A stretch of 64,000 bases of DNA from Candidatus Levyibacteriota bacterium (lineage in GTDB: Bacteria; Patescibacteriota; Microgenomatia; Levybacterales; UBA12049), in contig JACPLF010000007.1 of NCBI GenBank assembly GCA_016186645.1, positions 126,651 to 190,650 on the forward strand, in the 5' to 3' direction. The notes under the pieces are model-generated. The model ran no database searches. It had not been told where the DNA came from and saw only the letters and a program-made list of their open reading frames with translations. Positions 5,095 through 55,446 of this stretch are shown piece after piece (positions within the stretch are counted from its first letter, which is position 1; every line of letters starts with the position of its first letter). The translations under genes and the position numbers were made by a program.

Positions 5095-5631
5095 TTGGCT
5101 ATGCCAAATAATCTGTCCTCTATAAATCTTATCAAAAATAAACAGATTCCTCTTTTTGATAAGTTTATGAACTGGGCCCTAACAGTAGGCCGCTTGATTG
5201 TAATATTTACAGAAATAGTAGCAGTTTCAGCTTTTATTTATAGATTTTCCCTGGATGAGAGACTTATTGACCTTCACTCTGCGATCAAACAAAAACAGGC
5301 TTTGATCTCACTTTTAAAGCAAGATGAAACTAAATATAGAAATTTACAGAATCGTATCGCCCTAGCGTCTACGCTTTCTGAAAAAAATGAAAAAACTAAC
5401 AAGATAGTTTTAAATATTACAGACTTAATACCCCAGGGAGTAAGAATCAGTAATTTGACTTTCAATCAAGACAAAATAACCATAAACGCAAATGTAAATT
5501 CCGTATCATCATTAACGGATTTCATAAATACCCTTAGAGATTACCCAGATGTTAAATCTATAAGTATAGCCAACATCGAAAATAAGCCTTTGGTCGGCCT
5601 TTCGGTCACTGTTACAACAACACTTAAATAA
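5095..5631 (+). CDS. pilN: type IV pilus assembly protein PilN-like (single N-terminal TM)
   Basis: About 178 aa, short cytoplasmic N-terminus, one TM helix, periplasmic coiled-coil; followed by a PilO-like gene. Confidence 0.5.
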   Translation: MAMPNNLSSINLIKNKQIPLFDKFMNWALTVGRLIVIFTEIVAVSAFIYRFSLDERLIDLHSAIKQKQALISLLKQDETKYRNLQNRIALASTLSEKNEKTNKIVLNITDLIPQGVRISNLTFNQDKITINANVNSVSSLTDFINTLRDYPDVKSISIANIENKPLVGLSVTVTTTLK

Positions 5632-7858: not shown

Positions 7859-9402
7859 TGGTGTTTTTATTGATTTTAATTGGCGGATTTTTTCGCTTTT
7901 ACAATTTGGATTGGGGCAGCCCTTTTTATTTTCACCCTGATGAAAGAAATATTGCATCTTCTGTATTACAGATCAATTTCCCCAATCAGATGAACCCTCA
8001 TTTTTTTGCTTATGGATCTTTTCCTATATATTTAATTTATTTTACAGCTTTTTTTTTAAATTTAGTTAGCAAATCCCAACTGACTTTTGAACAAGCGCTT
8101 ATTATCAGCCGGTTCTATTCTGCAATTTTATCCGTACTTCTTATTCCCTCCATTTATTACATAGGAAGCAAATTAGCAAATAAAAACGTTGGGCTTATTG
8201 CAGCAGTATTTTGTACTTTTAGTGTTGGTCTGATTCAATTTTCTCATTTTGGAACATTTGAAATTTGGCTTACTTTTTTAGGTCTTTGGCTCTTTTATTT
8301 TTCCCTAAAATTATTAAAACAATTAGATTTTAAAGATATCATTACGGTTGGACTAATATCCGGACTTCTTGCAGCAACAAAGATTTCCTCTCTACCTCTT
8401 CTGATGATCCCTATGTTTTCTATATTAATAAGTTATTTATCACACAATAAATTATTCAAACATATCTTATATGGCTTGTCGCTAATATTTATCTCCTGCA
8501 TCTTATTTTACGCTGTTTCTCCTTATGTTTTTCTGGATACTTCTTCTTTTATAGCAAGCATGAGGCATGAGTCTTCTGTTGCTTTGGGAACATTATCTGT
8601 TTTTTATACGGGTGGCTTTTTCAATTCTATTCCTGTTATTTTCCAGTTTACGAAAATTTATCCATTTTTACTTAATCCAGCCTTGACTATCTTATTTATT
8701 CCTTCCCTAATTTATGTTATTTATTTTTTTCTGAAAAAACGGCATTATCCTCAATTACTTGTAGTCGCTTGTTTTTTATTACTTTTTTTCTCCCAAGCTT
8801 TTCTTTTTGCCAAATGGACAAGATATATATTGCCCACTTTGCCATTTGTATATTTAATAATTGCAATTTTTATAGATAAATTTATCAATAAAAAAATATT
8901 GCAAATCATATTTCTTATTTGCATAGTTTTTTCATGTTCTTATTTTATTGACAGTTTTGCAAGAAAGGATACCCGTATCCAGGCAAGTCTTTGGGCAAAA
9001 GAAAATATTCCTTCCAGCTCACGAGTATTAAGTGAGGTTTATGATTTGGGAATAGTCCCATTTAATCAATATCTGCCAAATATTTCCTTATTCAATTTTT
9101 ATGACTTAGATCAAACCCCCGACAAACCCTTGGAGCTTGATAAATTCTTATTAGAAAGTGGATATATTATTTTACCTAGTCAGAGAATTATACAAACTCG
9201 TATGATGAATAAAGACGAATTTCCCAATGGATATAAGTTTTACAATGAACTTATAAATGAGAAATTGGGATATAAAAAGGTTTACGAAACTTCTTGTGAT
9301 CTATTCTGCAAAATAATATATCTTGGAGATCCGGTTTTTTCATTCGAGGAAACTGCAAATGTTTTCGACCGCCCTACTGTTTTTATCTTTAAAAGAATGT
9401 GA
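7855..9402 (+). CDS. GT-C fold membrane glycosyltransferase (GT39/PMT_2-like, HPDER loop motif)
   Basis: 515 aa polytopic membrane protein; N-terminal loop FYNLDWGSPFYFHPDERNIASS; paralogous to the next gene. Confidence 0.55.
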   Translation: MMVFLLILIGGFFRFYNLDWGSPFYFHPDERNIASSVLQINFPNQMNPHFFAYGSFPIYLIYFTAFFLNLVSKSQLTFEQALIISRFYSAILSVLLIPSIYYIGSKLANKNVGLIAAVFCTFSVGLIQFSHFGTFEIWLTFLGLWLFYFSLKLLKQLDFKDIITVGLISGLLAATKISSLPLLMIPMFSILISYLSHNKLFKHILYGLSLIFISCILFYAVSPYVFLDTSSFIASMRHESSVALGTLSVFYTGGFFNSIPVIFQFTKIYPFLLNPALTILFIPSLIYVIYFFLKKRHYPQLLVVACFLLLFFSQAFLFAKWTRYILPTLPFVYLIIAIFIDKFINKKILQIIFLICIVFSCSYFIDSFARKDTRIQASLWAKENIPSSSRVLSEVYDLGIVPFNQYLPNISLFNFYDLDQTPDKPLELDKFLLESGYIILPSQRIIQTRMMNKDEFPNGYKFYNELINEKLGYKKVYETSCDLFCKIIYLGDPVFSFEETANVFDRPTVFIFKRM

Positions 9403-11147
9403 AATATCTACCATTATTTTTAATTTTAATTCTTGCTTTTATCTTGAGGGTATACGGACTAAATTGGGATCAAGGATTTCATTTGCACCCTGATGAACGG
9501 GCAATTGTAATTGCCTCTATACCCTTACAACTTCCTACCAATATTTCGGAACTTTTATCTGTCCAAAGCCCTTTAAATCCTCACTTTTTTGCATATGGGA
9601 GTTTACCAATGTATCTTCTTAAAGGGGTTGCTGTTCTCTTAACACCTTTTTATCCTCTTGCCTCATCATATGATCATATTAATTTAGTCGGACGTTTCCT
9701 CTCTGTTATTTTCGACATGGGAACTATTCTTATTATTTTTCTTCTGGGACAAAAACTTTTTTCAAGAAAAGTTGGACTAATAGCTGTATTTTTTTATACT
9801 ATAAGTGTTTTCCCTATCCAAGCTGCGCATTTTTATGCTGTTGATACCCCTCTTACTTTCTTTATTTTAGCAACTCTTTATATGCTTATTAGTTTCTATG
9901 AAAATCCTACAAAGAAAAAAGCTCTTTTTGTGGGGATATTATTTGGAATGTCTCTTGCAACGAAAACAAGTGCTTTAGTTCTGATAATGTCAATTGGAGC
10001 AGCATTAATTTCAGATTTTGTTTTGATATTTCTAAGAATTCCCCACCGACCTCATATTTGGTTTCCTCACATCCCTAAACTCATAAAAAAACTTTTAATA
10101 GAAGGTTTAATTATTTTAATATCAACAGTTATTTCTTTTATTATTTTTGAACCTTATGCTCTTTTGGATTTTAAGGAATTCTCAAGACAAACTCTGGAGC
10201 AATCGCAAATGACACATAATCCTTTCGCTTTCCCTTTTACCCTTCAGTACGTTGGAAAAATTCCATATTTCTATGAATTAAAAAATATTTTCTTTTGGGG
10301 TCAAGGACCGATTATTGCGACAATTTCTTTTTTGGGAACACTGTATATTAGTTTTCACCTAATAAAGAGACACCTCGGATGGTGGCGAAGCAACGACTTC
10401 GACTCCTCCGAGGTGGACAAGAGATGGGCACAAGAACTTATTCTTTTAATTTTTTTCTTAAGTTATTTTATTGTGGTTGGAAAATTTGCAGTCGGCTGGA
10501 TGCGCTACATGCTCCCTCTCTATCCTCTCCTTTCTCTTTTCGCAGCAGTTCTTGCTTATAAACTTCTAATTTTAATTAAGCGCAAATTTGGTTATTGGTA
10601 TTTATTTGTAGTATTGGTATTTATTTGTAGTATTTTATACTGGCCTTTATCTTTCGTGAATATTTATACAAAACCAAACACTCGCGTTTTGGCATCTGAG
10701 TGGATTAATCAAAATATTCCAGTAGGACCAACTCTTGCAATAGAACACTGGGATGATTCCCTTCCCTTGTTTGGCCAAGAAAAATATAAAATGCTTACAC
10801 TTCCGCTTTATGATCCCGATACTTCTGAAAAATGGAAAACAATAAATCAGGAATTATCAAAAACCGATTACATTATTATTGCTTCCAATCGACTTTATAC
10901 GCCACTTATGCGTTTGACAGATTGCAAAAAATTACCGGTGGGAAGATGCTATACGCAAACTTCTGAATATTATAAAAAACTATTTAGCGGATCTCTGGGT
11001 TTTAAGAAAGTAGCTGAATTCACATCGTATCCTAAATTTAGCTTCCCACTTGTCAAGTGGGAGCACGAAATAAATGATTCCTCAGCAGATGAATCTTTTA
11101 CGGTATACGATCATCCAAAAGTCCTAATTTTTCAGAAAATTCCTTGA
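9399..11147 (+). CDS. GT-C fold membrane glycosyltransferase (GT39/PMT_2-like), tandem paralog
   Basis: 582 aa; VYGLNWDQGFHLHPDERAIVIAS loop motif; ATGA start/stop overlap with the upstream paralog. Confidence 0.55.
   Translation: MKYLPLFLILILAFILRVYGLNWDQGFHLHPDERAIVIASIPLQLPTNISELLSVQSPLNPHFFAYGSLPMYLLKGVAVLLTPFYPLASSYDHINLVGRFLSVIFDMGTILIIFLLGQKLFSRKVGLIAVFFYTISVFPIQAAHFYAVDTPLTFFILATLYMLISFYENPTKKKALFVGILFGMSLATKTSALVLIMSIGAALISDFVLIFLRIPHRPHIWFPHIPKLIKKLLIEGLIILISTVISFIIFEPYALLDFKEFSRQTLEQSQMTHNPFAFPFTLQYVGKIPYFYELKNIFFWGQGPIIATISFLGTLYISFHLIKRHLGWWRSNDFDSSEVDKRWAQELILLIFFLSYFIVVGKFAVGWMRYMLPLYPLLSLFAAVLAYKLLILIKRKFGYWYLFVVLVFICSILYWPLSFVNIYTKPNTRVLASEWINQNIPVGPTLAIEHWDDSLPLFGQEKYKMLTLPLYDPDTSEKWKTINQELSKTDYIIIASNRLYTPLMRLTDCKKLPVGRCYTQTSEYYKKLFSGSLGFKKVAEFTSYPKFSFPLVKWEHEINDSSADESFTVYDHPKVLIFQKIP
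10374..10413. repeat. hairpin element (cctcgga ... tccgagg) in-frame within the GT-C gene
   Basis: 7-bp inverted repeat flanking cgacttcgactcc, a core shared with the uvrD/guaA element family; encodes ...LGWWRSNDFDSSEVDK.... Confidence 0.5.
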
Positions 11148-12224: not shown

Positions 12225-12791
12225 ATGAATATTGGATTTGATTTAGATAAAATATTTATTAATTATCCTCCTTTTGTTCCATCAAAAATTATTGATTTAT
12301 TATATAAAGGAAAACCGCGTGCGGAATTGGAATATCGTATACCGTCAAGATTGGAGCAGATTATTAGAATATTCAGCCACCACCCTATATTTAGATCTCC
12401 TATAGCTGAAAACATGAATTATGTTAAAGACTTAGCTTTACAGAATGAAAATAAATATTATCTTATTTCCAGTAGATTCAGCTTTTTGGAGAAAAAAACA
12501 ACAGAACTTATAAAGCGTCTCAGCCTAGATAAAATATTTAATGCGATGTATTTCAACTACAATAATGAACAGCCTCATCTTTTTAAAAACGGAGTGCTAA
12601 AGAAGTTAAAACTTGATATGTACATTGACGATGATTTGCAACTTTTGGAATATCTAGGGAATAAAAATCCTAAAATCAAATTTTTCTGGTTGAATAAGAA
12701 GTTTAGCAGATCATTGAAAAAAAATTTATTTGCTATAAAAAACATTTCGGAAATGTTCACCCCGCACCAAAATGGTGCAGGGTTCAAATAA
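12225..12791 (+). CDS. hypothetical protein, possibly degenerate HAD-like (NT5C-type) hydrolase
   Basis: MNIGFDLDKIF resembles HAD motif I (DxD); YIDDDL resembles motif IV; weak. Confidence 0.3.
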   Translation: MNIGFDLDKIFINYPPFVPSKIIDLLYKGKPRAELEYRIPSRLEQIIRIFSHHPIFRSPIAENMNYVKDLALQNENKYYLISSRFSFLEKKTTELIKRLSLDKIFNAMYFNYNNEQPHLFKNGVLKKLKLDMYIDDDLQLLEYLGNKNPKIKFFWLNKKFSRSLKKNLFAIKNISEMFTPHQNGAGFK

Positions 12792-15069
12792 TATGCTCCT
12801 CTCGGATTTGCTTAATATTTTCCAATGGTGGGCAACATTTTTTTTTGCTGGCGTTATCTTTATTCCCATAACAACTTTGATCTTTCCCAACTTTTTCGAT
12901 AAGGGTTATATTTTTGCGAAAGTTATAGGAATAGCATTAATAAGTTATACAATTTTTGTTTTAGGGTTTTTAAAACTACTTCCTTTTGAAACGCAAAATC
13001 TCTACATAATTCTAGGATTGTTTATTCCTATCAATTTATTGATTGGGAGAAAAAGTAAACTCAATTTCAAGCAGATACTCCCAATAATTATTATAGAAGA
13101 ATTTTTATTCGCAGCAATTCTTTTGTTTTGGTCTTTTATCCATGCCCACCAACCGGACATTCATGGGCTGGAAAAATATATGGATTATGGATTTATAAAT
13201 TCTATTTTAAGAGCTAAGTATTTTCCTCCTTTAGATATGTGGCTTACACCCTACCCTATTAACTATTATTATTTTGGGCATTTAGTAACTGCTGTTTTGA
13301 CAAAGCTTTCATTTCTTTCGTCATCAATTACTTTCAATTTAACGCTTTCAACAATCGCTGCATTTACTTTTACAGGTGCATTTTCAATTGGCGCAAATCT
13401 CCTATATTTTTTAAACAAAAACGGTAAAAATTCGAAATTACCAATAATCGGAGGCATTCTTACTGGACTTATACTAGGTTTTGCAGGAAACCTGCATACA
13501 GTTTATTTATTTTTCAAGCCTTATGAAAATGAAAATCCTGTACCTTTTTGGCAGTTAATCTTTTCTCCTAATACATTTCCAAATAGCTATTGGTATCCAA
13601 ATGCAACGCGCTTCATCGAAAACACTATTCACGAATTTCCAATCTATTCCTCTGTTGTTTCCGATCTGCATGGCCACGTTCTAGACATACCTTTTGTACT
13701 GCTAACAATAGCTATTCTTTTATCAATATTTTTTAGATTTAATAATCAATCCTCAATTCAAAATTTAAAATTCAAAATTCAAAGTGACAATTCAAAATTC
13801 AAAATCTTAAACTTTGAGTTTCCGTTTTTAACTTTTAACTTTTCACTTTTAACTTTGCTAGCATTTTTGCTAGCAATTATGTATATGATCAATGCTTGGG
13901 ACGGAATAATATATTTCTTATTGACAGCAATCGTAATTGCCTATGTCAAGCTAAAGTCAATAATACAAATTTCTCCCCACCAAAGTATTAAGTATTATGT
14001 ATCAAGTATTAAACAATCAAAGTACCTAATACCTACTACTTTATACTTAATACTTATTTTTGTTGGGTTTTTCCTTTTTACTTTACCTTTTAATCTTAAT
14101 TTCAAGCCTTTTGCTTCGGGGATTGGCGTACTTTGTGCGCCAAAATTTCTAACAGACATAGGACAATTTGGACCTTTCCTTTTTGAGCCAGACCATTGCC
14201 AACATTCACCTTTATGGCAATTATTTATTCTATATGGCTTTTTCTATTTTTGGATTTTTGGATTTTTAGTTTTTAAAATTAGAAATTTTTCTCCACCCGA
14301 TATCTTTGTATTGATTCTAATCCTGTTATCCGCTCTTCTTATTATCATTCCTGAATTTATATATGTAAAAGATATTTATCCTGCACACTACAGAGCAAAC
14401 ACCATGTTCAAACTTGTATATCAGTCATTCATGATGCTTTCTATCTCCTCGGGCTATATAATGGTTAGGCTAGTATCAAGTATTAAGTATTACGTATTAA
14501 GTATCGAGAAAAAAATTCTTTATGTCTTATACTTTATACCTGCTACCTTATACTTAATACTGGTATTCTTTTATCCTTATTTTGCGATTAATTCCTACTT
14601 TGGAAATTTAAAAACTTACCATGGTCTTGATGGAACAAGTTATCTTAAGCCACTTTATCCAAATGACTATGAAGCCATTTTGTGGATTAATAAAAACATT
14701 AAAGGACAACCAATTATTCTTGAAGCGCAGGGAGATTCGTATACCGACTATGGTCGCGTATCAGCCAATACCGGACTACCAACTGTTTTAGGATGGACTG
14801 TTCATGAATGGCTTTGGCGCGGAACCTATGATATTCCTTCCCCTCGGATCGAAGAAGTTGCAAAAATGTACGAATCCGATAATTCGAAAGAGATAGAATC
14901 CTTGTTAAAAAAATATAAAGTTTCGCTTATATTTATTGGTGAGTTAGAAAGACAAAAATATCCAAATCTTAATGAGGAAAAATTTCAGCTTTTAGGAAAA
15001 ACTATTTATCAAAAAGGCGATACAAGGATATTCCAGTCGATCACTGAAGAGGACAATCGCCAATTTTAA
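12772..15069 (+). CDS. large polytopic membrane protein (possible GT-C/DUF2298-like), carrying in-frame repeat insertions
   Basis: 765 aa, many TM helices, C-terminal soluble domain; internal tandem repeats and two inverted-repeat insertions (see repeat features). Confidence 0.45.
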   Translation: MVQGSNNMLLSDLLNIFQWWATFFFAGVIFIPITTLIFPNFFDKGYIFAKVIGIALISYTIFVLGFLKLLPFETQNLYIILGLFIPINLLIGRKSKLNFKQILPIIIIEEFLFAAILLFWSFIHAHQPDIHGLEKYMDYGFINSILRAKYFPPLDMWLTPYPINYYYFGHLVTAVLTKLSFLSSSITFNLTLSTIAAFTFTGAFSIGANLLYFLNKNGKNSKLPIIGGILTGLILGFAGNLHTVYLFFKPYENENPVPFWQLIFSPNTFPNSYWYPNATRFIENTIHEFPIYSSVVSDLHGHVLDIPFVLLTIAILLSIFFRFNNQSSIQNLKFKIQSDNSKFKILNFEFPFLTFNFSLLTLLAFLLAIMYMINAWDGIIYFLLTAIVIAYVKLKSIIQISPHQSIKYYVSSIKQSKYLIPTTLYLILIFVGFFLFTLPFNLNFKPFASGIGVLCAPKFLTDIGQFGPFLFEPDHCQHSPLWQLFILYGFFYFWIFGFLVFKIRNFSPPDIFVLILILLSALLIIIPEFIYVKDIYPAHYRANTMFKLVYQSFMMLSISSGYIMVRLVSSIKYYVLSIEKKILYVLYFIPATLYLILVFFYPYFAINSYFGNLKTYHGLDGTSYLKPLYPNDYEAILWINKNIKGQPIILEAQGDSYTDYGRVSANTGLPTVLGWTVHEWLWRGTYDIPSPRIEEVAKMYESDNSKEIESLLKKYKVSLIFIGELERQKYPNLNEEKFQLLGKTIYQKGDTRIFQSITEEDNRQF
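13755..13855. repeat. tandem simple repeats (aattcaaa)n then (ttttaac)n in-frame within CDS
   Basis: aattcaaaatttaaaattcaaaattcaaagtgacaattcaaaattcaaaatc ... ttttaacttttaacttttcacttttaacttt; encodes QNLKFKIQSDNSKFKILNFEFPFLTFNFSLLTL. Confidence 0.7.
13984..14055. repeat. inverted-repeat element (agtattaagtat ... atacttaatact) inserted in-frame, copy 1
   Basis: Termini agtattaagtatt and atacttaatact are reverse complements; a diverged second copy lies at 14472-14562 in the same gene. Confidence 0.55.
14472..14562. repeat. inverted-repeat element (agtatcaagtattaagtatt ... tacttaatact), copy 2
   Basis: Same terminal inverted repeats as copy 1; encodes VSSIKYYVLSIEKK...ATLYLIL paralleling ISPHQSIKYYVSSIKQ...TTLYLIL. 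Confidence 0.55.
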
Positions 15070-26199: not shown

Positions 26200-27470
26200 T
26201 TAAAAATTTTGATGCTTTAAACAAAACCCCTCAAAGGAAAATTTGTCTGGATTTAATAGAGTCGGCCCTTTTATCAATTCAACCCGAAAATATAATTCAA
26301 AAAAATATTTCTTTAAAAGAAAGTATTTTAACTATCCAAAATAAAACTTTTGATCTTAAAAATTTTGATAGAATTTTTCTAATTGGCTTTGGAAAAGGGT
26401 CTGCAGATATTTCTAAAAAAATAGAAACCTTACTTAAAGATCGATTAACAGATGGCTATGTTATTGATACAACAAAAGAAGAATTTTCAAAAATAAAATT
26501 TACTTTGGGAACCCATCCATTACCATCTCAGGAAAACTTTGATTTTACCCACAATGTCATTTCAAAATTTTCTAACCTTACGGGAAAAGATTTAGTTTTG
26601 GTTGTAATATCCGGCGGAGGATCTGCAATGCTGGTTCATCCCCATAACATAACGCTTGATGAAAAAATAAAAGTTGATAATGCATTACTTAAGTCAGGTG
26701 CCGATATTATAGAGATAAATATTGTAAGACAACATCTGTCAGACGTAAAAGGAGGAGGTCTTGCTCAAATATTATATCCTTCAACAGTAATTAGTCTTAT
26801 TTTCTCCGACGTGCCTGGAAATGATATTTCATATGTTGCATCCGGGCCAACAGTAAAAGATCATACAACAGTTTCGGATGCAATTAATATTATCAAAAAA
26901 TATAATCTCGAAAAAGAGCTTAACTTATCCTACGAAGCATTTGCAGAAAATCCCAAAGAAGATAAATACTTTGAAAAAGTTAAAAACATAATAGTATTGA
27001 GCAATTTAACAGCCCTGCAGGCTATGAAAGAAAAAGCAAAAGAACTGGGAATAAATGCAGCAATTTTTACAGACAGATTTCAGGGAGAAGCAAAATTGGC
27101 CGGAAAAAAGTTAATTAATAAAGCTCCAAATAATCAGATCCTTTTGGTAGGAGGAGAAACAACTGTAAAAGTTTTAAATCAAAATGGAAAAGGAGGAAGA
27201 AACCAAGAGCTGGTTCTGGGGGCATTACAGTATATAGACAACGATACGACAATTGCGTCTTTTGCAACGGACGGATGGGACAATACGGAAGCGGCCGGTG
27301 CAATTGGAGACTTTCTAACAATTCAAAAAGCAAAAGAACAAAATCTTGATCCGGGAAGCTTCTTGCAAGAAAATAATAGCTTTTACTTTTTTGAAAAAAC
27401 AGGAGACGGAATAATTACCGGCCGCCTCCCCTCCAACGTCTCCGACCTCATGATTGTATTAAAAAAATAA
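26193..27470 (+). CDS. glycerate kinase (MOFRL / DUF4147 family glycerate 2-kinase)
   Basis: 425 aa; N-terminal DUF4147-like and C-terminal MOFRL-like regions (VVISGGGSAMLV, LVGGETTVKV). Confidence 0.65.
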   Translation: MLIKNFDALNKTPQRKICLDLIESALLSIQPENIIQKNISLKESILTIQNKTFDLKNFDRIFLIGFGKGSADISKKIETLLKDRLTDGYVIDTTKEEFSKIKFTLGTHPLPSQENFDFTHNVISKFSNLTGKDLVLVVISGGGSAMLVHPHNITLDEKIKVDNALLKSGADIIEINIVRQHLSDVKGGGLAQILYPSTVISLIFSDVPGNDISYVASGPTVKDHTTVSDAINIIKKYNLEKELNLSYEAFAENPKEDKYFEKVKNIIVLSNLTALQAMKEKAKELGINAAIFTDRFQGEAKLAGKKLINKAPNNQILLVGGETTVKVLNQNGKGGRNQELVLGALQYIDNDTTIASFATDGWDNTEAAGAIGDFLTIQKAKEQNLDPGSFLQENNSFYFFEKTGDGIITGRLPSNVSDLMIVLKK

Positions 27471-28608: not shown

Positions 28609-29466
28609 ATGGTAGATTTAACTTCGGAAAAATTAAAAGATTTAGAAAACAAAGCAAATAAGATAAGACAGATGATTATTGAAATGCTTGTTGAGGCGGG
28701 ATCAGGACATTCAGGAGGACCGCTCGGAATGGCAGATATTTTTACGAGTTTTTATTTTCATATTTTAAATCACGACCCAAAAAATCCAAGTTTGCCTGAC
28801 CGAGACAGACTAGTTTTGTCCAATGGACATATTTGTCCTGTTCAATATGCCACAATGGCTTTGGCCGGATACTTTCCGATTGATGAACTAAAAACTTTAA
28901 GAAAAATAAATTCCCGTTTGCAAGGACATCCTCATAGAAGCTCTCTTCCCGGCGTCGAAACAACTTCAGGGCCTTTGGGTGAAGGATTGTCTCAGGCAAT
29001 TGGAATAGCATTAGCCGGAAAGATGGACAAAAAAAACTATCGTGTTTACTGTCTGACATCTGACGGAGAACATGAGGAAGGAAATACATGGGAAGCAGTT
29101 ATGTTTGCGGCAAAAAATAAATTGAATAATTTAATTCAGGTTATAGACCGCAATTATATTCAAATAGATGGCAGAACAGAAAATGTTATGCCTCTTGATC
29201 CTTTAAAAGAAAAGTATGAATCTTTTAATTGGAATGCAATAGAGGTAGATGGAAATGATATTAAGAGTTTTATTGTGGCTATTGAAAAAGCCAAATCAAT
29301 GTTGGATAAACCAACTATTATAATTGCGAAAACAATTCCGGGAAAAGGTGTGAGTTTTATGGAAAATGATTATCATTGGCACGGCAAGCCGCCAAATAAA
29401 GAAGAAGCCGAGAAAGCTCTAGTTGAACTACAAGCATTGAGAGAAAAAATTATAAAAGGAGAGTAA
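28609..29466 (+). CDS. tkt: transketolase, N-terminal (TPP-binding) subunit
   Basis: GSGHSGGPLGMADI TPP motif; 285 aa; partner C-terminal subunit at 29944. Confidence 0.85.
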   Translation: MVDLTSEKLKDLENKANKIRQMIIEMLVEAGSGHSGGPLGMADIFTSFYFHILNHDPKNPSLPDRDRLVLSNGHICPVQYATMALAGYFPIDELKTLRKINSRLQGHPHRSSLPGVETTSGPLGEGLSQAIGIALAGKMDKKNYRVYCLTSDGEHEEGNTWEAVMFAAKNKLNNLIQVIDRNYIQIDGRTENVMPLDPLKEKYESFNWNAIEVDGNDIKSFIVAIEKAKSMLDKPTIIIAKTIPGKGVSFMENDYHWHGKPPNKEEAEKALVELQALREKIIKGE

Positions 29467-29943
29467 CGATTCTAATATACGAATGTATACTAATAATACG
29501 AATAGAAAAATAAATAAAGACAAACTGATATTTCCCGAACTTTCTTATATGTTAACGGGAATTTGTTTTGACGTCCATAACGCTCTGGGCAGATTCTCTA
29601 AAGAAAAACAATACTGTGATGTGCTGGAAGAAAAATTAAAAAACTCTAACATTCCTTATGAAAGAGAATTAAGAGTAAAAAATACAGGCAACATATTGGA
29701 TTTTCTAATAGATAATAAAATTATAGTGGAAATAAAGGCCAAAAGGATACTTCTAAAAGAAGACTATTATCAATTACAGCGTTATCTTCAAGTACTAAAC
29801 ATGAAACTTGGTTTATTAATAAACTTTCGGAACCGCTACTTAAAACCCGCAAGAATTATCAAAATAGACACAGATGCAAGAAAAAAATTCGTACAACAGT
29901 AGTATTAGTATAATTAGTATGCATTAGTATATTCGTATCGCTT
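29467..29943 (+). mobile_element. small inverted-repeat-flanked element carrying a PD-(D/E)xK (GxxExxY/PDDEXK_3-like) gene, inserted between the tkt subunit genes
   Basis: Left end cgattctaatatacgaatgtatactaataatacgaat and right end cattagtatattcgtatcg match the two halves of the 71-nt palindromic element at 30939-31009. Confidence 0.5.
29483..29902 (+). CDS. PD-(D/E)xK nuclease-fold protein, GxxExxY (PDDEXK_3) family
   Basis: ELSYMLTGICFDVHNALG ... ILDFLIDNKIIVEIKAKRIL ... LQRYLQVLNMKLGLLINF matches the family pattern (ELSY..IG.A..VH..LG; DLLV..KIIVELK; LNYLK..GLKLGLLINF); D-x(n)-E-x-K core. Confidence 0.7.
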   Translation: MYTNNTNRKINKDKLIFPELSYMLTGICFDVHNALGRFSKEKQYCDVLEEKLKNSNIPYERELRVKNTGNILDFLIDNKIIVEIKAKRILLKEDYYQLQRYLQVLNMKLGLLINFRNRYLKPARIIKIDTDARKKFVQQ

Positions 29944-30933
29944 ATGCTTAATCCTGATTTAAAACTCAATCAAAAATTATTTGATCAAGACGTAGAAGTC
30001 AAACCCACTCGCGCGGGCTATGGCGAAGGACTTTTGGCACTTGGAGAAAAAAATCCCAATGTTGTGGCTCTTAGTGCGGACCTGACCGAGTCAACATACG
30101 CTCATCTTTTCGCAGAAAAATATCCTGATAGATTTTTTCAATGCGGTGTTGCCGAACAGAATATGGCAGCAATTGCTGCGGGTCTTGCAGTTAGCGGAAA
30201 AATTCCGTTTATCTCCTCCTACTCAACTTTTTCTCCCGGTAAAAACTGGGAAACTATTCGAACAACTATTATTTATAACAACGCCAATGTAAAAATGGCA
30301 GGCCATCATGCGGGAATAATGACAGGACCCGATGGCGCGACTCACCAGGCAACTGAAGATATTGCAAGCGTGAGAAGCTGGCCAAACATAAAAATTCTTG
30401 TTCCTTGTGACAGTATCGAGGGGAAAAAAGCAACAATTAGCGCTTCCGAAATAACAGGCCCCATCTATCTTCGTTTTTCTCGAGATAAAACGCCAATTAT
30501 AACAACCCCTGAGACTCCATTTGAGGTAGGCAAAATTCAAACTTTTTGGACAACGGAAAATCCTGTTGCCACTATTTTTGCAACAGGGTACATGCTTTAC
30601 TATTCAATTTTGGCCGCGAAAGAATTAGAGATAGATGGAATAAAAGTATTAGTCGCAAATGTCTCAGCAATAAAACCAATGGATCAAGAAGCTGTACTTT
30701 CTTATGCTAAGAATACTAAAGCATTTGTTACTGTTGAAGATCATCAAATAACAGGCGGGCTTGGCGGTGCAATTGCAGAATTTCTAGCTAAATTTATTCC
30801 AACGCCAATGGAATTTATCGGACTAAAAGACACATTTGCAGAATCGGGCGCACCAAAAGAGCTGATTGAAAAATATGGGATGGGGAAAGAAAGTATAAAA
30901 GAAGCAGTAAGAAAAGTGATTGGAAGAAAATGA
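29944..30933 (+). CDS. tkt: transketolase, C-terminal (pyrimidine-binding) subunit
   Basis: 329 aa; Pyr domain and C-terminal domain motifs (FQCGVAEQNM, GPDGATHQ). Confidence 0.85.
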   Translation: MLNPDLKLNQKLFDQDVEVKPTRAGYGEGLLALGEKNPNVVALSADLTESTYAHLFAEKYPDRFFQCGVAEQNMAAIAAGLAVSGKIPFISSYSTFSPGKNWETIRTTIIYNNANVKMAGHHAGIMTGPDGATHQATEDIASVRSWPNIKILVPCDSIEGKKATISASEITGPIYLRFSRDKTPIITTPETPFEVGKIQTFWTTENPVATIFATGYMLYYSILAAKELEIDGIKVLVANVSAIKPMDQEAVLSYAKNTKAFVTVEDHQITGGLGGAIAEFLAKFIPTPMEFIGLKDTFAESGAPKELIEKYGMGKESIKEAVRKVIGRK

Positions 30934-30938
30934 TTATG

Positions 30939-31009
30939 CGATGCTAATATACTAATTCGTACCAATAATACGAATTTGTATCATTAGTAACATTCGTATA
31001 TTGGCATCG
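30939..31009. repeat. 71-nt nested palindromic element (cargo-less copy of the GxxExxY element ends)
   Basis: cgatgctaatatac ... gtatattggcatcg terminal inverted repeats, 1 mismatch; inner aattcgta/tacgaatt pair; fills the whole tkt-FAD oxidase intergenic space. Confidence 0.6.
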
Positions 31010-31014
31010 ATTTT

Positions 31015-32667
31015 ATGAATGACAATCTCGCACAACAACTTAAAGCCGTCATCAAAGGTGATATTTTATCAGATGAAAAAACACTTACCGAGTATAGTCA
31101 TGATGCAAGTCTTTTTGAAGTAAAACCTCAAGTAGTTGTAAATCCAAAAGATGTATGTGACTTAAAAGCATTAGTAAAATTTGTCAGTGAAAATAAGAAA
31201 AATAATCCTTCTTTCTCTTTAACTGCAAGATCCGGCGGAACAGATATGGGCGGAGGGGCAATAAACGATTCTATTGTTGTTGCTTTTCAAAAATACTTTA
31301 ATCATATGAAACCTATAAATAACAATATTGCCAGCGTAGAGCCCGGTGTATTTTATAGAGAATTTGAAGAGCAAACTCTAAAACAGGGTCTTATTTTTCC
31401 ATCTTATCCTGCATCTAAGGAAATCTGTTGCCTGGGAGGAATTGTAAATAATAATGCCGGAGGAGAAAAATCACTTAAGTATGGAACAACAGGACAGTAT
31501 GTTAAAAGAGTAAGGGTAGTTCTTTCCGATGGCAACGAATACGAGTTCAAACCCCTTTTTGAAAATGAATTAAATGAAAAAATGAAACAGGAAAATTTTG
31601 AAGGAGAAATATATAGAAAAATGTATAGACTTATTATTGATAATTATGCCGAAATTATAAAAGCCAAACCTGATGTATCCAAAAACTCCGCAGGATATTA
31701 TTTATGGAATGTGTGGGACAAAGAAAAACGAATTTTCGATTTAACAAAGTTATGGGTTGGCGCTCAAGGAACATTGGGCTTACTTGTTGAGGCAGACATT
31801 CAACTTGTGCCTATTCGCAAACACCGCGACATGATGATTATTTTTTTACATGACTTGTCCCACCTAAGTCAGATTGTTAAAGAAGTCTTATCTTTTAATC
31901 CTGAAAGTTTTGAAGCATATGATGATAGTACTTTAAAGCTTGCGCTAAGATTTTTCCCCGAATTTGCTAAATTATTAGGAACAAAAGGAATTATTCAAAC
32001 AGCCCTTAGTTTTCTCCCGGAATTTTTTATGATCATGTTTGGAGGTTTGCCTAAATTAGTTCTTCAGGTTGATTTTACCGGAGACAATATTGAAGACTTG
32101 CAGAACAAAATCAAAAAACTTAAAGAAAGATTAAAACCTCTTCATCTGCAAATAAGAATTGCTCAAGAAAATCAGGAAGAAAAATATTGGGCAATAAGAC
32201 GCGAAAGCTTTAACTTGCTTCGTAAAAAAGTACGCAATAAACACACAGCTCCTTTTATAGATGACTTTATTGTTAAGCCGGAATATTTATCAAAAATTTT
32301 GCCGCAGGTAGTAAAGATTATCAAAAAACATCCGGAATTTATGTATACAATTGCAGGGCACGTTGGAGATGGGAATTTCCATATTATACCACTGGTTGAT
32401 ATTGCTAATCCTAATGTAAGAAAAAATATTCCAATTATTGCAGATCAAATTTACGATTTGGTTATTAAATATAAGGGCTCTATAACAGGAGAACATAACG
32501 ACGGACTTATTCGCACTCCCTATCTAAAACGAATGTATGGTCAAAAAATAATTTCTCTTTTTGAAGAGACCAAAAACGTTTTTGATTCCCAGAACATATT
32601 TAACCCGCGAAAAAAAGTCTTTGGAGATATCAATTTTGCAATGAACCACATCCGACAAAATTGGTAA
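31015..32667 (+). CDS. FAD-binding oxidoreductase (GlcD/D-lactate dehydrogenase-like, PCMH-type FAD domain)
   Basis: ARSGGTDMGGGA FAD-binding motif; 550 aa. Confidence 0.7.
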   Translation: MNDNLAQQLKAVIKGDILSDEKTLTEYSHDASLFEVKPQVVVNPKDVCDLKALVKFVSENKKNNPSFSLTARSGGTDMGGGAINDSIVVAFQKYFNHMKPINNNIASVEPGVFYREFEEQTLKQGLIFPSYPASKEICCLGGIVNNNAGGEKSLKYGTTGQYVKRVRVVLSDGNEYEFKPLFENELNEKMKQENFEGEIYRKMYRLIIDNYAEIIKAKPDVSKNSAGYYLWNVWDKEKRIFDLTKLWVGAQGTLGLLVEADIQLVPIRKHRDMMIIFLHDLSHLSQIVKEVLSFNPESFEAYDDSTLKLALRFFPEFAKLLGTKGIIQTALSFLPEFFMIMFGGLPKLVLQVDFTGDNIEDLQNKIKKLKERLKPLHLQIRIAQENQEEKYWAIRRESFNLLRKKVRNKHTAPFIDDFIVKPEYLSKILPQVVKIIKKHPEFMYTIAGHVGDGNFHIIPLVDIANPNVRKNIPIIADQIYDLVIKYKGSITGEHNDGLIRTPYLKRMYGQKIISLFEETKNVFDSQNIFNPRKKVFGDINFAMNHIRQNW

Positions 32668-53865: not shown

Positions 53866-55446
53866 TCATTCCCATTCCATTGTTGCTGGAGGCTTGGTAG
53901 TAATGTCGTAGACAACTCTTGAGACGCCTGGAACTTCGTTAACTATTCTTGAAGAAATTTTCTGTAAAAGATCATAGGGGAGCCGGGCCCAAGTTGTAGT
54001 CATAAGATCTTTTGACTCAATCACCCGAAGAGCTACAACCTCTCCAAACTGCCTCCCATCTCCTTTAACTGCAGTTGAATATGCATCTGTCATAACCGGA
54101 AAAGACATGAAGATATTTGGAATTCCCGATTTTTCAAGCTCTGAAAGAACAATCTCATCTGCCATTTTCTCCATTTCCAATCTTTCTTTTGTAACTTCCC
54201 CTCTAATTCTGACTGCGTATCCCGGACCGGGAAAAGTCTGCTTGCTAACAAATTCCTCAGGCAGTCCTAATTTTCTTCCAATTTTTCTCACTTCATCTTT
54301 ATAAAAATCCCGCATTGGTTCCAAAAGTTTTAATTTCATTTTTTTTGGCAATCCGCCAACATTGTGATGTGACTTAATTTTAGCCGAATGTTTTGTGCCT
54401 TGAGATTCTATAACATCCGAATAAATCGTGCCTTGAAGAAGAAACTTTACAGGTATTTTTTTCTTTAACAATTTTCTCCTAACACTTTCAAAAATCTCTA
54501 TGTAAAAATTGCCAATAATTTTTCTTTTCTTCTCGCTATCTGTAATTTTTTTAAGGCGGGACATGGTCTCCCCTGTCACATTTACTACTACAGGCTTAAT
54601 GCCAATTTTCTTAAATATTTTTATTACATGCTCCTCTGTTCCCTTCCTCATTAATCCATTGTCAATAAAAACAGGGACAAATCTTTTCCCTATCGCTTTT
54701 GCTGTTAAAGTCGCAGCAACTGTAGAATCAACTCCTCCCGATACTGCTCCGATTACATAACTCTCCCCGACAGTTTTTTGAATTTCTGAAATTATCCTCT
54801 CTGTCATTCTGGGGAACGAAGTGACTCCAGAATCGATTCTGGACAAGCCAGAATGACAAATACCAATAAAGTTTTCCAAGATTTGTAAGCCAAATTGCGT
54901 GTGTTCCACTTCCGGATGAAATTGAAGCCCGTATATTTTTTTATACTTGTTTTCAACAAATGCAAAAGGAACCCCAACGGACGAACCTACTGTTTGAAAA
55001 CCTTTAGGCAATCTAACCACCTCATCTCCATGACTCATCCAGACAATAAATTGCCGCGGCAATTTAGATGAGAATTGAGAAATGAGAGATGGGAAATTTT
55101 TATTTCTCATTTCTGACCTCTCATCTTTCATTTCCAGTGTCGTTGGTCCATATTCTTTTTTTCCTGCAATAACTCTTCCGCCTAATAAATGTGCTGTTAA
55201 TTGCAAACCATAACAAATTCCCAAAATTGGAATTTTCAAACTAAAGATCTTCACGTCGATAGTTGGTGCGCCTTTTTCGTAAACAGAAGATGGGCCTCCA
55301 GACAAAACTATTCCTTGGGGTTTCTTCTTTTTTATTTTTTCAAGGGCATCATCCGGATTAGCTATTAATACCTGTACACCAATTTCTTTAAGACGGCGTG
55401 CAATAAGATGTGTCGTCTGAGACCCAAAATCAACAATTATAATCAT
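53866..55446 (-). CDS. guaA: GMP synthase (glutamine-hydrolysing)
   Basis: GATase (GICYGLQ, HPEV) plus ATP-PPase SGGVDS motif; contains the family-A repeat element in-frame in the inter-domain linker. Confidence 0.9.
   Translation of the reverse strand: MIIIVDFGSQTTHLIARRLKEIGVQVLIANPDDALEKIKKKKPQGIVLSGGPSSVYEKGAPTIDVKIFSLKIPILGICYGLQLTAHLLGGRVIAGKKEYGPTTLEMKDERSEMRNKNFPSLISQFSSKLPRQFIVWMSHGDEVVRLPKGFQTVGSSVGVPFAFVENKYKKIYGLQFHPEVEHTQFGLQILENFIGICHSGLSRIDSGVTSFPRMTERIISEIQKTVGESYVIGAVSGGVDSTVAATLTAKAIGKRFVPVFIDNGLMRKGTEEHVIKIFKKIGIKPVVVNVTGETMSRLKKITDSEKKRKIIGNFYIEIFESVRRKLLKKKIPVKFLLQGTIYSDVIESQGTKHSAKIKSHHNVGGLPKKMKLKLLEPMRDFYKDEVRKIGRKLGLPEEFVSKQTFPGPGYAVRIRGEVTKERLEMEKMADEIVLSELEKSGIPNIFMSFPVMTDAYSTAVKGDGRQFGEVVALRVIESKDLMTTTWARLPYDLLQKISSRIVNEVPGVSRVVYDITTKPPATMEWE
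54802..54858. repeat. hairpin repeat element family A in-frame in guaA (tgtcattctgg ... ccagaatgaca terminal inverted repeats)
   Basis: tgtcattctggggaacgaagtgactccagaatcgattctggacaagccagaatgaca; 38-nt core nearly identical to uvrD 18109-18146; encodes CHSGLSRIDSGVTSFPRMT, a linker about 7 aa longer than E. coli GuaA. Confidence 0.7.

Follow-up and report, generated by a model that had tools for sequence, protein, structure and literature searches.

The locus studied here raises a simple question: what is the 71-nt palindrome that separates tktC, which encodes the C-terminal half of a split transketolase, from a flavin adenine dinucleotide (FAD)-linked oxidase gene in a 64-kb stretch of a Candidatus Levyibacteriota genome (contig JACPLF010000007.1; the whole stretch is hereafter termed the window)? 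On the other side of tktC lies a small element composed of two inverted arms and one gene, encoding a predicted PD-(D/E)xK nuclease of the GxxExxY family (PF13366/TIGR04256). The palindrome is very probably a gene-less derivative of the ends of this element. In the reading that we favour, and which we hold to be probable, it is a non-autonomous derivative of a previously undescribed, selfish-looking element, similar in kind to miniature inverted-repeat transposable elements (MITEs) and to the doublets of repetitive extragenic palindromic (REP) sequences known as REPINs.

The 71-nt palindrome matches the fused arms of the GxxExxY element

The gene-less palindrome, termed solo, and its two halves occupy the following positions.

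30939..31009, no strand assigned: gene-less (solo) palindrome, the left and right arms of the element fused directly; the whole space from tktC to the FAD oxidase gene is taken up by it
30939..30976, plus strand: solo left arm, a CGAT terminus and four ATACNAAT-type octamers (GCTAAT, ATACTAAT, GTACCAAT, ATACGAAT); arm model E = 3.8e-9, 32.9 bits
30974..31009, minus strand: solo right arm; arm model E = 2.6e-10, 36.5 bits; spacer 1 nt shorter, as is typical for right arms

As originally predicted, the outer arms of the palindrome, CGATGCTAATATAC and GTATATTGGCATCG, pair with 1 mismatch in 14, and when lengthened to 18 nt they pair at 16 of 18 positions (89% complementary). The inner pair AATTCGTA/TACGAATT (30955-30962 and 30969-30976) is also present, but it is not truly nested as had been proposed: its centre lies at ~30965 and that of the outer arms at 30974. 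The inner pair stems from an odd spacer inside the solo left arm. The left half of the solo aligns with the left end of the gene-bearing element (84% identity over 37 nt to 29467-29503) and the right half with its right end (77-82% identity over 22 nt to 29899-29943), while the right end of the solo pairs with 29467-29486 at 90% complementarity over 20 nt. The palindrome fills the intergenic gap as stated in the original prediction, the tktC stop codon ending at 30933 and the ATG of the FAD oxidase gene lying at 31015, with 5 nt to spare on either side. The 71-mer has a strong predicted fold, both as RNA (-22.5 kcal/mol, z = -5.5, equalled by 0 of 200 shuffled sequences) and as DNA (-14.2 kcal/mol, z = -5.6).

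A profile hidden Markov model (HMM) of the arms, trained on 128 arms from other genomes only, the window's own arms being left out, gives exactly four matches in the window, with E values of 2.6e-10 to 3.8e-9. They are the two arms that flank the nuclease gene and the two halves of the solo; the match ranked fifth has an E value of 3.8. With four matches at E of ~1e-9 to 1e-10, the resemblance is not an AT-rich chance match, and a similarity limited to AT-rich low-complexity sequence, the outcome that would have undone the proposal, is thus ruled out. The proposal that the palindrome is a cargo-less copy of the GxxExxY element ends is also supported by the occurrence of the same arms at ~64 other Patescibacteria loci and of ~17-19 further gene-less palindromes. 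The same solo sequence is found in an independent Logan assembly (L001), and an orthologous solo is present in the related ENA and JGI assemblies L269 and L270. A placement of the solo inverted relative to its neighbours, in view of the T at position 19 of its first arm, was dropped; the second arm carries the short spacer typical of right arms, which makes the orientation ambiguous.

The gene-bearing element and its predicted nuclease

The gene-bearing element and its neighbours are arranged as follows.

28609..29466, plus strand: tktN, N-terminal half of transketolase, upstream neighbour; PF00456, E = 4e-65
29467..29504, plus strand: left arm of the gene-bearing element; it starts right after the tktN stop codon and holds the GxxExxY ATG at arm positions 17-19
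29483..29902, plus strand: predicted nuclease gene (GxxExxY/PDDEXK_3), 139 aa; TIGR04256, 72.3 bits; PF13366, E = 2e-21
29903..29940, minus strand: right arm of the same element, with its end 3 nt short of the tktC ATG; arm HMM E = 4.5e-10
29944..30933, plus strand: tktC, C-terminal half of transketolase, the sole gene between the gene-bearing element and the solo; PF02779 and PF02780
31015..32667, plus strand: FAD-linked oxidase gene; PF01565 and PF02913; ATG 5 nt past the solo

Thus, the window presents the gene copy, then tktC, then the solo. The two arms of the gene copy (29467-29504 and 29903-29940) are 38 nt long, 84% complementary and located exactly between the halves of the split transketolase. 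The 139-residue open reading frame (ORF) that they enclose is the only one of the element; it scores well above the curated cut-offs of TIGR04256 (72.3 bits, cut-off 35) and PF13366 (76.9 bits, cut-off 22), and it matches no transposase family. The catalytic PD-(D/E)xK residues, D73...E83-x-K85, are invariant across 26 aligned homologues. The AlphaFold model (predicted local distance difference test score, pLDDT, of 84) displays a mixed alpha/beta core as expected for the PD-(D/E)xK fold, with residues 1-9, which are encoded by the arm, disordered. The Foldseek matches of this model are all weak (template modelling score, TM, ~0.3-0.48), the best being Cas4/RecB-type nucleases, with splicing-endonuclease and Hjc structures besides; they confirm the modelled fold of the protein and are uninformative on its substrate. 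No relatives were found in the PDB by sequence at E <= 0.01, and a six-frame profile search of the window detects no second GxxExxY gene, only the region 29456-29899.

GxxExxY/PDDEXK_3 proteins form a large family of small nucleases annotated across bacteria and in some viruses. A survey of PD-(D/E)xK enzymes lists the function of PDDEXK_3 as unknown (PMC3424549). Full-text literature searches on GxxExxY, on PF13366/PDDEXK_3/TIGR04256, on intergenic palindromic repeats of Patescibacteria and on the Bacteroides arm sequence described below returned no description of the arms or of gene-less copies.

Arm architecture in Patescibacteria homologues

A protein search gave hundreds of homologues, mostly from Patescibacteria, and 80 genome loci were fetched for comparison. 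Nearly every homologue (54-76% amino acid identity) carries the same flanks, of the form ...CGATRCYAATATACNA/ATG-NAT-ACT-AAT-NAT-ACN-AAT... on the left and ...AAATTCGTA/TAATTAGTATNATTCGTATATTRGCATCG on the right. A pattern scan of the 80 loci retrieved 64 left-right arm pairs located 400-650 nt apart, each enclosing a GxxExxY gene. The consensus of 132 arms, which are ~38 nt long, comprises CGAT followed by four ATACNAAT-type octamers that start at arm positions 3, 11, 21 and 30 and are thus spaced 8-10 nt apart. Since the ATG lies at arm positions 17-19, the terminal residues of the protein are octamers read as codons, and this applies both to the near-invariant N-terminal M-H-T-N-x-T-N and to the C-terminal K-F-V. 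The disorder predicted for residues 1-9 fits the view that the DNA, and not the protein, imposes this conservation.

Several loci depart from the simple architecture. In L051 (10440-10730) the right arm is expanded to roughly 30 tandem octamer or nonamer units (ATTAGTATT / ATTTGTATC), an array that points to slippage among the repeated units. Other arrangements (L037 4337-4374; L014 14645-14682; L014 9940, L046 9937 and L055 7840; L044 3883-4146) comprise single arms right before unrelated genes, additional left arms in tandem immediately upstream of a gene copy (those of L014, L046 and L055), and a tandem duplication of the left arm together with the first ~100 nt of the GxxExxY ORF. At least two elements of this subfamily lie at distant sites of the same genome in L018 and L022 (332-kb contig CAWJQC010000007.1) and in L041 and L060 (one metagenome-assembled genome). 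A search of IMG/VR for carriage by phages gave no match to a 27-nt arm pattern; an 18-nt pattern gave 104 single matches, but the arm HMM scores every one of them at 22 bits or less, as a seed-only match, and they were taken as chance.

Gene-less copies are a recurrent class located beside gene copies

The solo of the window is not an isolated case. Arm pairs that lie less than 150 nt apart and enclose no gene (70-120 nt) were found ~17 times by the pattern scan of the 80 loci, and two further examples, in L057 and L078, were recognised by eye, for a total of ~17-19. The distance from a solo to a gene copy has a median of ~1.1 kb (11 measured), the solo often sitting at the adjacent gene junction. 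One solo is present in the window and two or three per 7-25 kb in other loci, with presence varying at orthologous sites. Solos also resemble the gene copy beside them: same-orientation arms share 4.38 of 6 variable positions within a locus versus 3.19 of 6 between loci, and unusual termini or units are common to the solo and the resident gene copy in L049, L081 (TTATAC terminus), L046, L062 and L070. The central sequences of solos usually differ, even within one genome (L012, L049). The two solos of L015, however, share internal sequence, and therefore at least one solo has been copied as a unit; in the same locus the GxxExxY gene is not enclosed by a palindrome but has a complete one on either side. 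In the window, the solo left arm lacks the ATG usual in left arms.

A translated search of plasmid records extended the comparison to GxxExxY genes of Bacteroides finegoldii and Treponema saccharophilum. The B. finegoldii gene product (34% identity) is encoded between radA and a gene for an FAD-dependent protein, in the same direction as both, and the gene is flanked by 30-nt arms of CACAGAGGAC units that are 90% complementary, begin 2 nt after the radA stop codon and end 5 nt before the next ATG. Three palindromes without a gene, which share the termini TTCACCACAGAGGAC...GTCCTCTGTGGTGAA, lie in the 25-kb record, and the motif matches there number 15 versus 1.05 expected. The arms of the T. 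saccharophilum gene are inverted and 28 nt long; a gene-less palindrome of ~88 nt lies just past the next gene and a single arm is found 13 kb away (5 motif matches versus 0.22 expected). The gene-less copies of the two records are located as follows.

B. finegoldii (L268, NZ_OY725952.1): 5400-5585, 8745-8895 and 12836-12905, gene-less palindromes
T. saccharophilum (L273, pTS1): 26799-26886, gene-less palindrome; 12076, single arm

One of the B. finegoldii palindromes encloses a G+C-rich terminator-like hairpin and another overlaps the annotated start of a zinc-ribbon gene. As read from these sequences, each protein lineage has its own arm sequence, whereas the architecture and the accompanying solos are unchanged across three phyla.

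Placement, gain and loss of the elements

Gene copies are located between genes of the same direction and in the same orientation in 35 of 45 cases, with one case of the opposite orientation. In most cases 0-7 nt separate the upstream stop codon from the left terminus, and 2-10 nt separate the right terminus from the next ATG. The neighbour genes of 47-49 gene copies belong to 35-36 different families, and many different junctions have therefore been colonised. None of 68 elements displays a direct repeat of at least 4 nt at its flanks, and one has a repeat of 3 nt. Accordingly, the original suggestion that the solo is a MITE holds if the term is used loosely, for any short non-coding derivative with the ends of a resident gene-bearing element, but not as regards target-site duplication (0/68). 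In one subfamily the palindrome runs 4-5 nt into the flanks (TAGTAT/CGAT...ATCG/ATAC), bringing the stop and start codons to the base of the stem.

Gain and loss at the junctions of the window were assessed with 80 metagenome loci in which tktC is 54-90% identical and the order tktN-tktC-FAD oxidase is kept. Neither a GxxExxY gene nor arms were found among these 80 loci, and no GxxExxY gene was detected by a six-frame profile search of 476 kb of related tkt loci. The closest loci (L082, L084, L085, L089, L096, L097, L100 and L108) have little or no spacer at one or both of the junctions: tktN and tktC overlap (ATGCTTAA) or lie up to ~30 nt apart, and 0-8 nt separate the tktC stop codon from the ATG of the FAD oxidase gene, which, together with the conserved gene order, suggests co-transcription. 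Compared with positions 29464-29946 of the window, L082, L084 and L089 have the tktC start inside the end of tktN. In element-bearing genomes the C-terminus of tktN differs (KIIKGE and the stop codon) and the stop codon abuts the arm, so the tktN/tktC junction has been remodelled around the insertion. In other relatives without the element, 80-130-nt palindromes of unrelated motif families, including CCTAATT, TTGAGAA, CGAAATC, TAGCGTT, GATTTAY, ATTGTT and TCAGA..., were observed at the junctions flanking tktC (L083, L086-L088, L090-L095, L099 and L110, as well as the element carrier L271), the same junctions being empty in still other relatives.

Besides the window, the element is present at the tktN/tktC junction of three sets of loci.

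L269/L270: GxxExxY 91% identical to that of the window; tktC/FAD oxidase junction with the orthologous solo and a partial extra arm
L271: GxxExxY 82% identical; tktC/FAD oxidase junction with a palindrome of a different motif family
L002: GxxExxY 76% identical; tktC/FAD oxidase junction with arms inside-out, right then left (CATCG/CGAT)

The inside-out arms of L002 (11453-11527) resemble a circle or tandem junction, with the ATG of the FAD oxidase gene at the end of the second arm. In the tktC tree, carriers of the element are interleaved with non-carriers, and the identities of GxxExxY (91, 82 and 76%) track those of the host gene (tktC 85, 75 and 71%). The locus data indicate repeated gain and/or loss of the element.

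These observations bear on the alternative that survives best, according to which a full GxxExxY element once lay between tktC and the FAD oxidase gene, its gene was lost, and the fused arms are an immobile scar. Deletion would have proceeded by recombination or slippage between octamers, as the decay stage of a homing-endonuclease-type cycle of invasion, decay and loss. Such a dead remnant agrees with the vertical inheritance of the solo with its site in the window and L269/L270, with the loss from the solo left arm of the ATG normal for left arms, and with the differing centres of solos of one genome (L012, L049). It also agrees with the proneness of the octamers to slippage (the ~30-unit array of L051 and the extra left arms of L014, L046 and L055) and with the tracking of host-gene identity by GxxExxY identity, as for long vertical residence with losses. 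However, it requires many independent deletions, each removing the whole gene yet sparing both 38-nt arms; the internal sequence shared by the L015 solos shows at least one solo to have been copied as a unit; and the preference of solos and single arms, in three phyla, for the junction beside a live copy suggests an ongoing copy-dependent process. We consider a dead remnant unlikely, while taking it as the main rival of the non-autonomous derivative that we favour.

The motif is conserved, the pairing between arms is not

A hairpin with a strong predicted fold could also be a host RNA element, kept because in the mRNA of the tkt operon it stabilises the transcript, is processed by RNase III, couples translation, or terminates or attenuates transcription; the resemblance to the GxxExxY arms would then concern its origin only. 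The fold itself (z = -5.5) is in its favour, as is the exact filling of the stop-to-start gap, with 5 nt on each side, which most family members share. The unrelated palindromes at the same two junctions would likewise indicate that hairpin-forming inserts are tolerated there. Selection for pairing was assessed by aligning 68 arm pairs to the arm HMM. Conserved columns make up 28 of 38, and they pair trivially, since the motif is common to both arms. In the 10 variable columns, complementarity between the arms of an element is seen in 239 of 595 cells, versus 239.6 expected from random re-pairing. The solos of the window and L269 have ~6 differences in the left arm and 1 in the right arm, with no compensation. 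There is no covariation, and therefore the motif is conserved and pairing between the arms is not under selection; a hairpin selected as RNA or DNA was rejected on this ground.

The proposal that the palindrome serves as a transcription terminator fares no better. No intrinsic (Rho-independent) terminator is called at 30939-31015, the stem is AT-rich rather than G+C-rich, and it is followed by only four T residues (tail ATTTT). A search of 29300-31200 with the covariance models of Rfam 15 gave 0 matches at E <= 1. Furthermore, the closest relatives have 0-8 nt between the same genes, so the hairpin is dispensable. A host RNA element is thus improbable. The pattern argues against a hairpin kept for its structure and, as judged from the sequences, favours two inverted sets of sequence-specific sites. 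Such inverted sites are the usual logic of transposon ends and of REP sequences.

A further alternative reverses the relationship between the palindromes and the gene. The palindromes would be an independent class of repeats, into the centre of which a homing-type GxxExxY gene copies itself, and the 71-mer would be an unoccupied target. The existence of many palindrome families at the same junctions with no nuclease gene nearby, the location of the first and last codons of the gene inside the arms, and the gene of L015 lying between two complete palindromes could be read in this way. Against it, ATACNAAT arms were seen only in loci with the cognate gene, ~19 solos being present in 1.1 Mb of such loci and 0 in 476 kb (0.48 Mb) of related loci without the gene. 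Solos also display the left and right features of gene copies: the G at position 19 of left arms is kept in the first arms of 12 of 14 solos, and their second arms have the shorter spacer, which descent from a gene copy accounts for more readily. Such a landing pad is very improbable. Finally, chance AT-rich similarity or an assembly artefact, which the G+C content of the window (36%) and the AT-rich arm motif might have suggested, is refuted by the arm HMM (E ~1e-9 to 1e-10), the Logan assembly L001 and the orthologous ENA and JGI copies, and can be dismissed.

Proposed mechanism

The favoured reading, a gene-less non-autonomous derivative of the GxxExxY element, can be given a mechanism. That the PD-(D/E)xK protein binds the palindrome, as originally suggested, is plausible in view of a repeated motif that is conserved while pairing is not, and it is the mechanism that we favour; the arms may well be the binding sites of the nuclease, a proposition for which we see about as much to say as against. 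The nuclease would bind octamers both in its own arms and in the solos, and the 8-10-nt spacing of the four sites per arm could place several protein subunits side by side. Cleavage at or near the CGAT termini would allow arms and solos to spread or to be reshaped. Mobilisation of the solos in trans is possible but somewhat less secure: a nuclease from the neighbouring copy would create or move gene-less copies, as happens between a MITE and its parent or between a REPIN and its REP-associated tyrosine transposase (RAYT). The elements would depend on read-through transcription, which could account for their orientation bias. In the mRNA, the stem formed by the two arms would keep the neighbouring stop and start codons adjacent, and this could explain why the inserts, and the unrelated junction palindromes, survive in compact operons.

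A number of observations weigh against this account. To our knowledge, there is no precedent for a 139-residue PD-(D/E)xK protein acting as a transposase, and the tie between nuclease and arms is inferred from sequence. Only one solo occurs in the 64 kb of the window; it is shared vertically with L269/L270 and is therefore not a recent insertion. No identical copy pairs were found among the loci, which leaves no trace of very recent movement. The clustering of solos beside a gene copy could come from local duplication or recombination instead of transposition, and the inside-out arms of L002 are not predicted by a simple origin through internal deletion. In addition, no nuclease gene was seen in the sampled flanks of the unrelated junction palindromes, so palindromes may arise or persist at these junctions in the absence of such a gene.

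If the arms are recognised by the nuclease, the system would provide a second, independent route to the long-lived type of intragenomic replicator represented by REPINs and RAYTs. In any case, the GxxExxY family gains a concrete and testable genomic behaviour, namely a gene with inverted arms of repeated motifs and matching gene-less palindromes nearby. Some of the so far unexplained intergenic palindromes of Patescibacteria, whose genomes are very compact, may be accounted for by the elements, which also prompt one to ask how operons remain functional when 70-470 nt are inserted precisely between a stop codon and a start codon. B. finegoldii and T. saccharophilum are cultured, and bench testing is therefore possible.

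Other palindromes and repeats of the window

Three further palindromes of the window lie inside genes. Two of them (13983-14055 and 14479-14561), with AAGTATT/AATACTT units, are in frame within a 765-aa ORF for a DUF2298 membrane protein (12772-15069) and encode similar peptides (SIKYYV...TLYLIL); they recall the gene-inserted Rickettsia palindromic elements, or may represent an internal duplication. A 61-nt palindrome with TGAGA-type units (55066-55126) is in frame in the glutamine amidotransferase (GATase) domain of GMP synthase (ORF 53866-55446, minus strand), to which it adds roughly 20 residues (...MKDERSEMRNKNFPSLISQFS...), and its motif resembles that of the tktN/tktC palindrome of L087. 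In addition, a 19-nt unit (ATTGGTATTTATTTGTAGT) is tandemly duplicated at 10594-10629, inside the ORF 9399-11147.

Comparison with known systems

Two systems were considered and rejected. In the tandem interspaced guide RNA (TIGR) arrays of TIGR-Tas systems, tandem units of ~36 nt with box C and D motifs lie by a Tas gene, which encodes a Nop-domain protein (PMC12045711). The locus has only two inverted arms and no tandem 36-nt array, its neighbours are tkt, GxxExxY and FAD oxidase genes, and no Tas gene lies beside the arms, no search for Tas having been made elsewhere in the window. Integron attC sites were rejected because the flanking genes are housekeeping genes in conserved order.

Free-standing homing endonuclease genes, such as the phage seg and mob genes and the PD-(D/E)xK enzyme I-Ssp6803I, resemble the element as small nuclease genes between conserved genes, with a patchy distribution at one site, no target duplication and gene-deleted remnants to be expected. 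However, homing genes are not known to possess long terminal inverted arms composed of repeated units, and the element is found at at least 35 different junctions rather than at one cognate site. The intervening sequences of 23S rRNA, the stem of which is cut by RNase III, similarly comprise a small ORF between long inverted repeats within a transcribed unit and are dispensable, but the element lies between protein-coding genes instead of in rRNA, and its arms are not under selection for pairing. Rickettsia palindromic elements share with the solos the toleration of palindromes in the compact genomes of host-dependent bacteria; in contrast, the solos are intergenic and have an identifiable gene-bearing parent.

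The likeness is closer to MITEs and to the short operon palindromes, which include Correia elements (also termed Neisseria miniature insertion sequences, NEMIS), enterobacterial repetitive intergenic consensus sequences (ERIC, or intergenic repeat units, IRU) and repeat units of pneumococcus (RUP). Like these, the solo is a short non-coding element with the terminal inverted repeats of a resident gene-bearing element, forms a long hairpin, lies in a transcribed intergenic gap and varies in presence at orthologous sites. It differs by the lack of target-site duplication (0 of 68), by a parent devoid of a DDE or other known transposase, and by its placement within a few bases of stop and start codons, in an orientation that follows the operon.

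With REPIN/RAYT systems the element shares a gene present at one or few copies per genome and flanked by inverted repeats, gene-less inverted hairpin doublets between genes, and single arms and other arrangements comparable to the clusters formed by bacterial interspersed mosaic elements (BIMEs). A long and largely vertical residence, purifying selection on the gene and the lack of target-site duplication are also common to both. The differences concern the protein, the repeat and the copy number. The element encodes a PD-(D/E)xK protein (PF13366/TIGR04256), whereas RAYTs are HUH/Y1 tyrosine transposases similar to those of IS200/IS605. Its arm consists of four direct octamers ending in CGAT, in contrast to the REP sequence, a 20-40-nt palindrome tagged with GTAG or CGTC (PMC3733652), and the copies observed are few and close to the gene.

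An element of this kind, in which a nuclease gene is combined with arms and which has gene-less partners in three phyla or more, is previously undescribed. We tentatively suggest that GxxExxY proteins are the enzymes of tiny mobile elements that occur across phyla, insert without target duplication at stop/start junctions, have lineage-specific arms and are accompanied by hairpin copies recognised in trans. The unrelated palindromes at the tkt junctions of related Patescibacteria and those in frame in the window could then be products of sister systems. On that tentative view, the element would represent a partnership of the REPIN/RAYT type in which the enzyme has an entirely different fold. 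Among known systems, it functions most like REPIN/RAYT and MITE-parent pairs, yet it is a member of neither.

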